Positions 33,617 to 62,896 of a stretch of 64,000 nucleotides of DNA are shown piece after piece (position 1 is the first letter of the stretch; each line of letters opens with the position of its first letter). The notes below the pieces were generated by a model, which saw only the letters and a program-made list of their open reading frames with translations, did no database searches and was not told the DNA's origin. Source of the DNA: Octopus vulgaris (Eukaryota); NCBI GenBank assembly GCA_951406725.2, contig OX597816.1, positions 79,484,001 through 79,548,000 on the forward strand, read 5' to 3'. The position numbers and the translations under genes are program-made.

Positions 33617-33821
33617 ATGAGTAAAGAAGTCAACTCTGAAGAAATAAAAAAGGAAATTATTTTTAAAGAATACTTCGGCAAAGATGGAGAACCTATGCCT
33701 GTCTATCAATATAAAGGACACAATATTGTGTATTTAGAAATAGCAGCGTCAGCTTTATCGCAACAACATATGGTGAAAATTCGACCTGATGATATGTTGA
33801 TGCTTTCCTATCCTGCAGCCG
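33617..33821 (+). CDS. SULT copy B exon 1
   Basis: ATG...TATCCTGCAGCCG|gtaag. Confidence 0.85.
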
Positions 33822-36800
33822 GTAAGATTTTACTATATAGCTATTGTTAGGCAAAATATTTTACATTGTAGACAGGGTGTGTTTGCATGTCTCTGTATGG
33901 TGCTCATACGTGTATTATTTGTTTGTGGTTGTGTAATTTATTTACATATTTCCATTCAACACACTCTATGTACCCTTCATTCACTTTATTATCCTATATT
34001 TACTTGGTTCGCAAAGATCAATATATTTCCCTATTTTTATTTATTTCCTTTTTTCAATTTCTTCCCTTGCGTGTGTGAGGATTTTTTACGCGTCTGTGTG
34101 CACTTGCGTATGTATATATATAGGTATAAACGATATTTGTACATATGTCGATGCTTTTGACTTGGGACTGTCTTGTGTAGCTGCTGGGATGCCCCTGAGT
34201 GTATGCGTATATTATTCGAGTTCATATGACTTATCGTTTTTCGGCTTTATACCTCTCTCGACTAGTTCCACTGTTTCAGATTAACCAGAATAATTATCGC
34301 CTTCAACACCAACACATACACCAGGTGTGGGCAAACTACGGCCCGCGGGCCGCAAGCGGCTCGCCATAGGTTTTCATGCGGCCCGCCGAGAGCTTTTATG
34401 AATCCCAACTTCTATGCAGATACTTCGTAACTGTTTCAGTTGTACGGTAATTCACAATAGTTTGCATTTTATTTCAGTTCACTGTTTCGCGCCTTCACAA
34501 AATTGTCCGCTGTTTGTTTGTTTCAGCTACTGAGAAGCGATGAAAAATTTCGAGAAATATTCCCATGACATCATAATAAAACACATTTCCGGGTGAAGAT
34601 ATCTTTTCTGTGTTTTCTCGTCAGACCCTACAAACACAAAAATTAATAGAACAATGAAACAAGTATTGTGGCAATACAACGAGTCAATCGATATGCTTGA
34701 AACATTCAAATAAATCTATCACGTGATAGATGGTGAAGAGGGCATGATGGACGATGCGTTTCGTTCCAATGAAGAAGCCGGCCAGGTTAATAAAAGGGCT
34801 TGAACCAGCTTTTTCTGGACACAGAGCTGTGGTTGGTTATCATTCACTCTATCGATTATTTGAATTTAGTGCAGACACGAGTGTTTCAAACTAGCTTTTG
34901 TTGTCTGATAAAATTTACCCAAAATCAGTTGTTCGAAGCTATCTAAAAAGCGAAAAATTGAAGAGGAATGTCGTGTTTTTAATGAAAATTGGACTGAAAA
35001 GTATTTCTTTACCGACGTTGGAGTGAAAGCTTCATGTTTGATTTGTTCTGAAACAGTTGCTGTGTTCAAGGAATATAATTTGAAACGCCACTTTCAAACG
35101 AAGCAAACCAATTTTGGACACAATTTATCAAAACAAGAACTGCGAAAGAAAGCAAATGATCTGACAAAACGTTTGAAGCAACAGCAAAATGTGTTTGATA
35201 AAACTTCCTCTTTACAAAGGAACGCGACAAAGGCAAGTTTTATATTGGCCAACAAAATTGCAAAGCAAAACAAGTCATTCGCAGAAGCAGAATTTATCAA
35301 AGATTGTATGGTTGATGCTGTCAGCGTTGTGTGTCCTGAAGTTAAGTCAAAAGTAGAAGCCATTTCCCTGTCACGAAGAACTATTGTTCGTCGCATTGAT
35401 GCAATTGCCGTGAATATTCATGAACAGCTGTTAACAGCCAGTGGTCGATTTCAGTGGTTTTCTATTGCTTTAGATGAGAGTACTGATATTCAGGATACTG
35501 CTCAGTTACTCATTTACATCAGAGGAATTGACGAAAACTTTGAAATTACAGAGGAACTGTTATCTATGGAGTCTCTCAAAGACACTACTACTGGAAAAGA
35601 TTTGTTTAACAGTGTCATTAACAGTTCAATCAGGTCTGGATTAACCCTAAATAAACTGGCCAGCATTACAACGGATGGAGCTCCTTCACTCACCGGTAAA
35701 CATTCCGGCCTTGTGAAGTTGTTGAATGACAAAATCAAAGAAGATTTTCCACAACACAGTGTGTTGTCTTTTCATTGCATCATACATCAAGAAAGCCTTT
35801 GTAAGTCATCTTTAAAACTCAAACATGTCATCGAACCTGTGCTGCGTGCAGTGAATTTAATAAGATCACGGGGATTGAAACACAGGCAATTCCGAAGTTT
35901 CTTGGTGGATGTGGAGGCTGATTTTACTGATGTGCTGTACTACACAAATGTCCGCTGGTTAAGCATTGGAAAAGTTCTTAAGAGAGTATGGGACCTCAAA
36001 GCAGAGATTCTTATGTTTCTCAAAATGCAAGACATCTCCTGTGACTTTTTAAACGAAATGGAGAGTGACGAATGGGTTTGTGATTTTGCATTTGCTGTGG
36101 ACATAATGCAGAAGCTGAATGAACTTAACACAAAACTGCAAGGCAAAGGTATATTTGCTCATGAATTGTACCTGGAAGTGAAAGCTTTTCAATGGAAGCT
36201 TGGACTTTTTGCCAAGCAGCTGAATGAGCAAAAATCTATTCACTTCCCTCTGCTGAAAACAGTCTGTTACACAAGAATCATCGGACAAGTACAGTTCCCA
36301 GTTGATGGCTTTACAAAAGGAATTCATTAGAAGATTTGCTGATTTCAAGGCAGTTGAAGGCCTGTTCGATTTGCTTAACTCACCTCTTGCCTGTGACATT
36401 GAAACAACTACCGAGGAACTGCAGATAGAACTGATTCATTTGCAAGCCGACAATTCTTTAAAGATGATGTTTGAAAGTAAACCACTGGTCGAGTTTTATG
36501 CTTCTCTACATATGTGAGCAGACTTTCTCCATCATGAAAATTAACAAGGGGAAGAATCGATCACTTCTCACAGACTCAAATCTTCAGTCAGTGTTAAGAA
36601 TCAGCACAAGCAACTTGACACCTAATTTTGACAAACTGGTAAATGACAGTAGTCAGCTGCATCATTCTCATTGACATTGTTATTTACAGAGCCGCTTTGT
36701 TTTTCAAATAAATGCTTCAGGTGACGTTTCTAATTTCAGATATCAATTCATATTAATAAACTGTTATTTCTCTTTAAAATCTTTTATTTTGGGTATCCTA

Positions 36801-61100: not shown

Positions 61101-62896
61101 CACTGTTTCTAAAAGATCGGAAGGGTTGTCCAAGGTGTTGCACAGTTCAGAGACGGATATGTCGCCCCTATCATTCCTAGGGACCTTGCCTTCTCCAAGG
61201 GCTAATATGTCTTCAGCAAATGCTGCAGACATGCTATCACCAAGCAAGTGCGCACGCATGTTTGTGCTTAGGCTTAAGGTCTTAACCTGGAGCCACAACG
61301 TGGATGACTAAAGGCATGAACGCACTTCATCATCCCGACTCTTTTTTAGGGATGACAGGAAGGGTTTGCCGGAAATCTCCTGAAAACAATAGTCACACCA
61401 CCCATAGAAGCTGTATAATCCTTGAAACCTTTCAGTGACCGGTCCAATGCCTCAAGGGCAGCTTCTTGGTCATTGAACATTCGTCCCATACAATGAGACG
61501 GCACTGTCTAAGAATTTCACCTTCCTCTGCATTTTTGCCAATGATGCAAGTAGGAACCTCGGACCTCATCAAATGTAAAAGAAGTTTGAATGCCGAGTGC
61601 GCCGTCCTACCTCCCGGCAATAATGTAGCAGCGATTCCCGAGGAAGCAACGGCTAGCGCAATTTGTTTCTCGCGATGAATCTTAGCAAGTATCAATTGCA
61701 TTTTAGAATCATCACAGCAGTCTGCTGTGATGATTCTAAAATGCAACACATAAATACGTAACAATATATCTTTTTCTACTCCTCTGAAGAGATTTTGTCT
61801 AGTATAATGATTTTAATAATTCCTATTCAATCTTTTAAGGCTTAGTTGAAACAGCCGTAAGAGACTGTTTGACTTTTGCAGATAAAATTTTATTAAATGC
61901 TACATCTCTATTTTCTTTTCGTTTAAATGGTTATATATGTGTGGGTGCGTGTATGTGTATTTATTTAAGACTGTATACATATATATATATATATATATAT
62001 ATATATATATATATATATATATATATATATATATATATATATATATATATATATATATATATATATATATATATATATATATATATATATGTATATATAT
62101 ATTTATATGTGTGTGTGTATAGTCACTCTTATGGTGATCGTTTCATCCAAGAACCACTGGTTTACTATATTATATTGCTGAAAATTATCTCTTCAATATC
62201 AAAATATTAATGAATTAATCTATATTTGTCGAAACTCTCCATTTTCTTACTTAATAATACTACACAAACACACACACACATATGTACCTATATATATATA
62301 TATATATATATATATATATATATGTGTGTGTGTGTGTTCGTGTGTGTGTGTGTGTGTGTGTGTGTGTGTGTGTTTGTGTGCGTGTGTATGTATAACTGGC
62401 AATCTGTCGGTTACGACACCGAGGGTTCCAGTGGATCCAATAAATGGAATTACCTGCTCGTGAAATTAACGTGCAAATAGCTGAGCACACCACAGACATG
62501 TGTACCCTTAACGTAGTTCTCAGGGAGAACCGGCATGACAAAGATTTTGACAATGCTGGCCCTTTGCAATGTAGGTTCAACTCATTTTGCTAGCTGAGTA
62601 GCTTGGAGCAACATGAAATAAAGTGTCTTGTTCGTCGAAGAGACTTGAACTGACAACCTTAAGATCATGAGCCGAATGCCTTAACCACAAAGCCATGCAC
62701 CTTCATGAATGTATGTATGTATGTATGCATGTATATATCAATGCATGTTTCCGTTTTCCACATAATACCTGTTTCCGTCATATTTATAGGTAAAGTAGAC
62801 ACATGGAAAAAATGGTTAACAGTGGAACAAAGTGAAAGAATGGATGCAAGGATCCAATCAGAATTCATCAATCAAGGAATCATTTTTAATTTTTGA
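54952..62896 (+). CDS. Cytosolic sulfotransferase-fold gene copy C (5 coding exons, 301 aa)
   Basis: Exons 54952-55156, 57511-57828, 58620-58717, 58972-59149 and 62790-62896; same lengths and splice sites as B; 5 amino-acid differences seen. Confidence 0.9.
57511..57828 (+). CDS. SULT copy C exon 2
   Basis: Paralog of 41378-41695. Confidence 0.9.
58620..58717 (+). CDS. SULT copy C exon 3
   Basis: Paralog of 42513-42610. Confidence 0.88.
58972..59149 (+). CDS. SULT copy C exon 4
   Basis: Paralog of 42872-43049. Confidence 0.88.
60184..61695 (-). mobile_element. 5'-truncated Helitron with a decayed Pif1 helicase, in intron 4 of copy C
   Basis: [55 protein letters not shown] and QFPVRP motifs; 3' hairpin plus CTAG near 60184. 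Confidence 0.9.
62790..62896 (+). CDS. SULT copy C exon 5
   Basis: Paralog of 45296-45402; AATAAA at 63026-63031. Confidence 0.88.

Follow-up and report, generated by a model that had tools for sequence, protein, structure and literature searches.

The window analysed here is a 64,000-nucleotide stretch of the Octopus vulgaris genome (assembly GCA_951406725.2, contig OX597816.1, positions 79,484,001 to 79,548,000 of the forward strand) that carries two complete genes, B and C, and the last coding exon of a third, copy A, all related to cytosolic sulfotransferases (SULTs). In the B and C proteins, residues by which SULTs bind and activate the sulfate donor 3'-phosphoadenosine 5'-phosphosulfate (PAPS) are replaced. 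Judged from their sequences, B and C arose by recent tandem duplication within a family of octopod proteins that are intact and have the sulfotransferase fold, and the feature is larger and older than a first-pass annotation of the window had held, being a family trait and not a peculiarity of these two copies. Equivalent residues carry human numbers, of which 48, 53, 108, 134, 257 and 263 come from published work (PubMed Central, PMC, numbers PMC6969939 and PMC1847840), and 130, 138 and 193 are those of the first-pass annotation.

Genes B and C

Genes B (33617-45402) and C (54952-62896) each have five coding exons, of 205, 318, 98, 178 and 107 nucleotides, placed by six-frame motif searches followed by splicing:

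33617..33821, plus strand: gene B exon 1, from the ATG to SYPAA-G; Ala67, the Lys48 equivalent, has its codon (GCA) at 33815-33817
41378..41695, plus strand: gene B exon 2, with GSHW including the Trp53 equivalent, the invariant K92-E93, catalytic His117 and RNPKA...S
42513..42610, plus strand: gene B exon 3, PYGDYF...VTYEEMK
42872..43049, plus strand: gene B exon 4, with the cap loop, His265 (the Arg257 equivalent, codon CAT at 43043-43045) and Thr266 (the Lys258 equivalent)
45296..45402, plus strand: gene B exon 5, with GKVDTW, the dimer motif and the stop
54952..55156, plus strand: gene C exon 1, with the codon for Ala67 at 55150-55152
57511..57828, plus strand: gene C exon 2
58620..58717, plus strand: gene C exon 3
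58972..59149, plus strand: gene C exon 4, with the codon for His265 at 59143-59145
62790..62896, plus strand: gene C exon 5; the spliced product matches record P0177 exactly

The four introns of each gene are GT-AG throughout, and splicing yields a 906-nucleotide coding sequence and a product of 301 amino acids with no internal stop, as the first-pass annotation had proposed; the motifs that it gave, SYPAAGSHW and IYHTGKVDTWK, are indeed read from both spliced genes, together with RNPKA. The spliced C product is identical, letter for letter, to the O. vulgaris record P0177 (CAI9719530.1), and B is three residues away from Octopus sinensis P0001; therefore, the same junctions have been used by independent annotations. 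Both altered motifs had been said to straddle exon junctions. However, only the glycine codons at the two motifs are cut by introns, and the substituted codons (Ala67 GCA, His265 CAT and Thr266 ACT, the last two at 43043-43048 in B) lie wholly within exons 1 and 4, so that no other choice of splice sites restores Lys48 or Arg257. No segment of PKSG type is present in introns 1 and 4 of B and C, and the four RKG matches there all fall within repeats or insertions, which speaks against the suggestion that different junctions might bring back the canonical motifs.

Of the 906 coding bases, 7 distinguish B from C (five non-synonymous, two synonymous; five amino acids), and their exon 2-4 regions are about 96% identical, introns included. 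This closeness is what favours an explanation by artefact or decay, in which the genes are young pseudogenes, the junctions are wrong, the motifs are restored by adenosine-to-inosine editing, or B and C are two haplotypes of one gene. Coleoids recode their RNA, and the His codon (CAT or CAC) could be edited to Arg. Such an explanation is nonetheless very improbable: besides the position of the changed codons inside exons, GCA and GGA cannot yield Lys by A-to-G change, the clade protein P0011, on a contig of 1,213 bases that could not accommodate the introns, still has His, the ratio of non-synonymous to synonymous substitution (dN/dS, or omega) is 0.31, orthologues are found in O. sinensis (with two 301-residue records), O. 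bimaculoides and Argonauta, and the introns of B and C hold different insertions. A haplotype origin of the pair would leave the family-level finding unaffected.

Within intron 1 of B, a stretch without counterpart in C holds a stop-to-stop open reading frame (ORF) of 472 amino acids (34912-36330) with a weak match to the Spin-doc zinc finger. Intron 4 of C contains a fragment of a Pif1 helicase 2B domain (60523-61146), absent from B and putatively Helitron-like.

Fold and nucleotide pocket

The PF00685 profile matches P0001 with an E-value of 4e-48 and 164 bits, relative to a curated cut-off of 22, and the closest solved relatives are SULT1E1 and SULT1A. The AlphaFold model of P0001, an orthologue of B and C, has a pLDDT of 87.6 and superposes on SULT1A1 with a Z score of 30.2 and a root-mean-square deviation of 2.2 Å over 271 residues. 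No hydrophobic N-terminal stretch is present in the B/C-type protein. On the profile and the predicted structure, the B/C protein is assigned to the cytosolic sulfotransferase fold family PF00685.

In canonical SULTs, the 5'-phosphosulfate-binding (PSB) loop reads TYPKSGT, with Lys48, and the C-terminal motif reads RKGxxGDWK. The corresponding segments of B and C are SYPAAGS, without the lysine, and HTGKVDTWK, in which only Gly, Trp and Lys of the motif are kept. The 3'-phosphate ligands Arg130 and Ser138 are present as R138 and S146 (with Arg in 9/9, and Ser or Thr in 9/9, of the His-type genes described below), and catalytic His108 is present as H117 and in all 47 rows of the Lys48-less clade. 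The dimer motif KxxxTVxxxE, as defined in PMC11275347, can also be read in the B and C sequences. Thus, the octopus proteins share with human SULT1A1 and SULT1E1 and plant AtSOT18 the fold, the equivalents of His108, Arg130, Ser138, Trp53, Tyr193 and Gly259, and the dimer motif, but B and C differ from those enzymes by the substitutions Lys48Ala, Thr51Ser, Asp134Ala, Arg257His, Lys258Thr, Gly262Asp and Asp263Thr. The first-pass annotation had recognised these substitutions, including the change of RNPKD to RNPKA, with the exception of Asp263Thr and Thr51Ser, and had rightly listed the equivalents of the catalytic His, Arg130, Ser138 and Tyr193 as present.

When the contacts of 3'-phosphoadenosine 5'-phosphate (PAP) listed for AtSOT18 (PMC5482895) are mapped onto B, the side-chain contacts lost are Lys93 (human Lys48) and Arg313 (Arg257), and the equivalents of Gly95, Arg177, Ser185, Gly315, Trp98, Tyr243 and catalytic His155 are kept. 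In addition, Thr96 is Ser in B, and Thr97 is replaced by His, a residue that 144 of 187 canonical relatives also have. The 3'-phosphate and 2'-OH are bound by Arg313, and Lys314, the Lys258 equivalent, touches PAP through its main chain (PMC5482895); the Lys258 change therefore matters less. Asp134 and Asp263 have been described as required for SULT1A1 activity (PMC6969939). The activity of AtSOT18 Lys93Ala was below detection (PMC5482895), and by analogy the loss of normal PAPS-dependent activity would be the likeliest consequence of the substitutions in B and C.

For comparison, 191 full domains from outside the cephalopod clade, mostly unnamed representatives and with partial rows dropped, were scored at the same positions. 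Lys or Arg at position 48 is found in 187/191, Arg257 in 178/191, Asp134 in 179/191 and Asp263 in 166/191. The sole outside row lacking both Lys48 and Arg257 is a truncated, partly gapped domain, and because the two positions are near-universal in the set, the loss of both is not a matter of chance. P0071, from the gastropod Batillaria attramentaria, retains Lys48 but has no RKG (GGPGGETDDWK) and reads RNPKA, possibly an independent erosion of the pocket.

These data bear on whether B and C are ordinary PAPS-dependent sulfotransferases that are simply slow, with affinity and rate lowered and function not abolished. A histidine can hydrogen-bond phosphate, and the proteins retain the fold along with the majority of PAP contacts. 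The main-chain contact made by the Lys258 equivalent (PMC5482895) points the same way, but the same Lys-to-Ala change abolishes AtSOT18 activity (PMC5482895) and Lys or Arg is kept at position 48 in 187 of the 191 outside domains, making a slow but ordinary enzyme improbable.

Family size, descent and selection

Exon searches of the genome, with 40 sequence stretches extracted for gene rebuilding, give family counts that are lower bounds (the P0012 orthologue, for instance, lies outside the extracted stretches). Of 13 candidate genes on contig C3, 12 could be rebuilt as intact five-exon genes, and all 12 lack Lys48. The thirteenth, gene K (C3:26654819), is of the Arg type and has a frameshifted exon 1 with exons 2-5 that look intact; it is probably a pseudogene or an assembly error. 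His replaces Arg257 in nine of the 12: Z1, Z2, A, B and C in this tandem array, E, F and Gg about 10 Mb away, and H at 26.6 Mb. The other three (I, J and D, the last of which follows immediately after the window) keep Arg257 within the motif RSGKVSTWK. Further Lys48-less genes are found on C24 and C2, and a gene on C8 has canonical motifs (YFKAG and RKG..GDWK); other PF00685 loci lie on C7, C8, C19 and C24. The earlier view that such genes had been retained and re-duplicated is thereby extended to a set of intact paralogues on the same chromosome. Paralogue F (C3:89916799-89919355) has exon 4 in two tandem copies, which may be mutually exclusive or may reflect a local duplication, and its intron 2 starts with a GC donor.

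A tree of 52 rows was built with IQ-TREE (UFBoot/SH-aLRT support, midpoint root, trait columns retained); gene J, a near-copy of I, the canonical octopus C8 genes and SULT4A1 were left out. All Lys48-less proteins fall into a single clade (98/87), next to SULTs of bivalves and gastropods, and the alignment with mollusc SULTs that the first-pass annotation had called for thus recovers a cephalopod group. In its basal members, Argonauta P0034 and Octopus P0179, Lys48 is the sole loss and RKG..GDWK is kept. At the next node (99/95), Asp263 is also lost, and here the cuttlefish Acanthosepion pharaonis P0192 (YPCCG / RKGKVATWK) is included; both losses therefore predate the octopus-cuttlefish split, about 270-300 million years ago. 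The third node (99/95), whose named members are all octopods, adds Lys258Ser and Asp134Ala/Ser. Since P0033, P0191 and P0196 lack Lys258 too, its replacement may have several origins. Arg257His and Thr51Ser appear in the His clade (100/100), which comprises proteins of O. vulgaris, O. sinensis, O. bimaculoides and Argonauta; most of its members also have Asp at Gly262. B and C are the youngest tip of the tree. Because the two O. sinensis 301-residue records pair together (91/80), the B/C duplication has been either repeated or homogenised, unless the pair is a haplotype duplication. As reconstructed from this tree, the motif losses are stepwise, with at least four steps (Lys48, then Asp263, then Lys258 and Asp134, and last, in octopods, Arg257, Thr51 and Gly262), and not the coordinated loss of both PAPS-binding motifs that had been proposed.

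Purifying selection on the nine His-type genes is indicated by codon comparisons. Pairwise dN/dS ranges from 0.24 to 0.52; the B-C value of 0.69 comes from 7 differences only, and that pair alone is uninformative. The maximum-likelihood omega over 296 codons, with kappa fixed at 2, is 0.308, with a log-likelihood of -5365.6 as opposed to -5483.6 at omega 1 (118 units better). The neutral ratio expected of young pseudogenes, a case raised by the first-pass annotation, is not what is found, and this, together with the intact frames, argues against pseudogenes. In a partition drawn after the alignment was inspected, omega is 0.055 for the motifs (38 codons), 0.485 for the acceptor loops (66) and 0.33 for the rest (177). 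Similarly, 82 of 301 sites are invariant overall, compared with 10/15 in the pocket, 9/10 in the dimer motif and 2/15, 3/14, 4/20 and 0/11 in four acceptor-side segments. His265 is invariant (9/9).

Across the 47 clade rows, which are non-independent (isoform P0187 was dropped, and the start of P0175 is mis-predicted), the equivalents of His108, Arg130, Trp53 and Gly50 and the K92-E93 pair are present in every row. Position 48, by contrast, is occupied by G, A, T, C, S, Y or L, with K or R in 0/47, and so seems to have been freed from constraint and not to have gained a new catalytic residue.

Constraint on the dimer motif (9/10 positions invariant in nine His-type genes) could also be expected if the proteins were dead subunits that dimerise through KxxxTVxxxE and regulate canonical sulfotransferases, for which canonical-motif partners exist in the genome, or each other. 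However, such a role would call for no set of nine paralogues and no diversity of acceptor loops, and nearly all SULTs have the dimer motif, leaving this a doubtful account with only a slim chance of being right.

The rest of the array and window holds partial copies and mobile elements. Copy A had been noted to share GKVDTW, and does so in its terminal exon:

4549..4655, plus strand: copy A, last of five coding exons, GKVDTWK...stop; the other four precede the window

Rebuilt with the upstream sequence, copy A is intact, with 303 amino acids and the motifs YPAAG / YHSG. Just upstream of this exon is an inverted partial copy of exon 5 (3828-3899, minus strand), and an orphan exon-4-like fragment lies between genes C and D (C3:79553339-79553440). 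Between copies A and B are reverse-transcriptase ORFs of non-long-terminal-repeat (non-LTR) type (RVT_1, zf-RVT; 19288-22173 and 26485-27804) and an LTR-retrotransposon-like element on the minus strand (10671-16160). The latter has near-identical direct repeats 5,142 nucleotides apart, with an identical run of 259 nucleotides, and matches to reverse transcriptase, RNase H and integrase spread over several separate ORFs; it is probably young.

Expression, candidate function and meaning

Traces of expression come from several sources. The 300-residue His-clade protein P0011 is encoded on a Logan contig of 1,213 bases; since this is too short to hold the introns, an origin from spliced RNA with an unedited His is suggested. 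In O. vulgaris, the peptide WLTVEQSER was recorded as one spectrum in one of three samples of an ink proteome (PMC10142993 supplement), and TISDQLAK as one spectrum in a skin-mucus proteome (PMC10138644 supplement). Among 282 proteins compared, the former is confined to His-clade members, including B and C, and the latter to the Z2 group. These peptides are weak evidence that the clade is translated in O. vulgaris, are not specific to B or C, and are silent on abundance.

Elsewhere, none of the 20 sequencing runs listed for exon 2 is recorded as RNA. No identifiable clade gene appears in three supplement files of a brain atlas (PMC9712504) or in 393 characters of supplement from a Paroctopus gland study, and a salivary proteome supplement gives a CHST15 match only; overall, the available supplements of PMC9712504, PMC12607849, PMC7693380 and PMC6635378 contain nothing mappable to clade genes. 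In a paralarva diet study, a SULT1A1-like transcript with a log2 fold change of -9.1 has, among the matches listed, a dog best match only and is unmappable. The sulfotransferases mentioned in the available parts of PMC13669787 and PMC8976471 are Golgi-type enzymes.

The reading favoured here, with confidence and doubt about equally weighted, is that members of the B/C family are pseudo-sulfotransferases, that is, non-catalytic binders of small molecules and not sulfating enzymes. The alignments argue that the pocket is remodelled and not abandoned, with the equivalents of Trp53, Arg130, Gly259 and His108 and the dimer motif near-invariant and the acceptor loops variable. Nucleotide binding may persist, because the 3'-phosphate Arg and Ser, the adenine-stacking Trp, Tyr193, Gly50 and Gly259 are under strong constraint. 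Without Lys48, the sulfuryl transition state would be unstabilised and turnover nil or very low. The kept equivalents of Trp53, Arg130, Ser138 and Gly259, together with the new His, would still bind PAP, PAPS or some comparable nucleotide, if perhaps only with low affinity, and the bound nucleotide would order the cap. The His108 equivalent could then hydrogen-bond the hydroxyl of a phenol, catechol or sterol (or a sulfate ester), and the loops of each paralogue would pick a different ligand, giving a set of cytosolic carriers or buffers. Sulfation itself would be left to canonical-motif sulfotransferases elsewhere in the genome.

Several observations weigh against such binders. The His108, Arg130 and Trp53 equivalents are each kept in 47/47 rows, and a constrained core with variable acceptor loops is just what a family of active enzymes would show as well. 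Basal P0034 and P0179 lack Lys48 only, with RKG..GDWK intact. The omega partition is post hoc, and the mutants on which the argument draws were made in plant and human enzymes. The clade peptides are single spectra with no sign of carrier-like high abundance, TISDQLAK is absent from B and C, and neither peptide is specific to them. No ligand, tissue or activity data turned up in the literature and supplements searched.

In the chief rival account, the same conservation is read as that of active enzymes with rewired chemistry, in which another residue replaces Lys48 or the donor or direction differs, an unlikely reading but one with an appreciable chance. For instance, the task of Lys48 could fall to the clade-invariant Lys92 in loop 1 or to the His found at the Thr52 or Arg257 position, analogous to the moved lysine of WNK kinases; alternatively, the proteins could carry out desulfation, aryl-sulfate exchange via bound PAP or, like retinol dehydratase, sulfation followed by elimination. 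The invariance of the catalytic His, Arg130, Trp53 and Gly50 equivalents, the motif omega of 0.055 and an origin of the kept residues before the octopus-cuttlefish split are all consistent with rewiring, as are K92 and E93, found in 47/47 rows compared with 111/187 and 79/187 canonical relatives, respectively. However, K92 already occurs in 103 of 144 THW-type relatives with Lys48, and since it is common where Lys48 is kept, it is not a new compensating residue. Kinship among the rows also inflates invariance, and four more losses of activity-linked residues followed later in octopods.

Known systems offer partial parallels. SULT4A1 shows no PAPS-dependent activity in vitro and does not bind PAP, but binds catecholamines; it keeps TYPKSGT, has Leu in place of Trp53 and has a shortened lid loop (PMC1847840, PMC11275347). 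A sulfate-dependent function has been reported for it in yeast (PMC8803991). The likeness lies in a conserved SULT fold under selection, lacking PAPS activity in vitro in the case of SULT4A1, with small-molecule binding on SULT4A1's side. In B and C, by contrast, Trp72 (Trp53) is kept, the lid and cap are full length relative to SULT1E1, and Lys and Arg are lost; moreover, SULT4A1 is a single gene and the octopus proteins are a tandem family. A SULT4A1-type pseudo-sulfotransferase is therefore rejected for B and C, and the first-pass annotation's description of SULT4A1 as a loose precedent is apt in that loose sense only. An origin independent of SULT4A1 is suggested by nesting among mollusc SULTs in a tree from which SULT4A1 was left out.

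Insect retinol dehydratase depends on PAPS, and its structures contain bound PAP. It has a SULT fold with a different net reaction (PDB 1fmj; Z 27.6 to the P0001 model, about 20% identical). The octopus clade also resembles another case of amplification of a detoxification-enzyme fold in cephalopods, the S-crystallins, in which the glutathione S-transferase fold was amplified, activity was lost and a structural lens role was acquired. The fold and the lens role differ, however, and no lens or abundance evidence was found for the octopus SULT-fold clade.

The full-text literature searched, which excludes most subscription papers and bioRxiv supplements, contains no description of Lys48-less cephalopod SULTs and no mention of six gene and protein identifiers of the clade, and the ESM Atlas has generic sulfotransferase clusters only. 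Clade genes are annotated, probably wrongly, as 'estrogen sulfotransferase-like' and 'sulfotransferase 1E1/1C2-like', and octopus transcriptome studies may therefore misread them as steroid-sulfating enzymes. An optic-gland study places a transcript called 'Sulfotransferase 1C2' in a steroid pathway (bioRxiv 10.1101/340984).

Taken at its fullest, a proposal we hold tentatively and at slightly less than even confidence, coleoids would carry an old no-lysine sulfotransferase lineage that octopods amplified to at least nine His-type genes. This lineage would either run a Lys48-free chemistry (desulfation, aryl-sulfate exchange or catalysis by a relocated lysine) or supply nucleotide-gated carriers whose cargo is hormones, catechols or toxins from the diet, and would be the first multigene pseudo-sulfotransferase radiation in animals, with every intermediate of the erosion alive. 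The living series, from loss of Lys48 only through the addition of Asp263, then Lys258 and Asp134, and then Arg257, forms a ladder along which a sulfotransferase may have become a binder or a different enzyme, and the octopus family bears on the role of inactive SULT-fold proteins such as SULT4A1.

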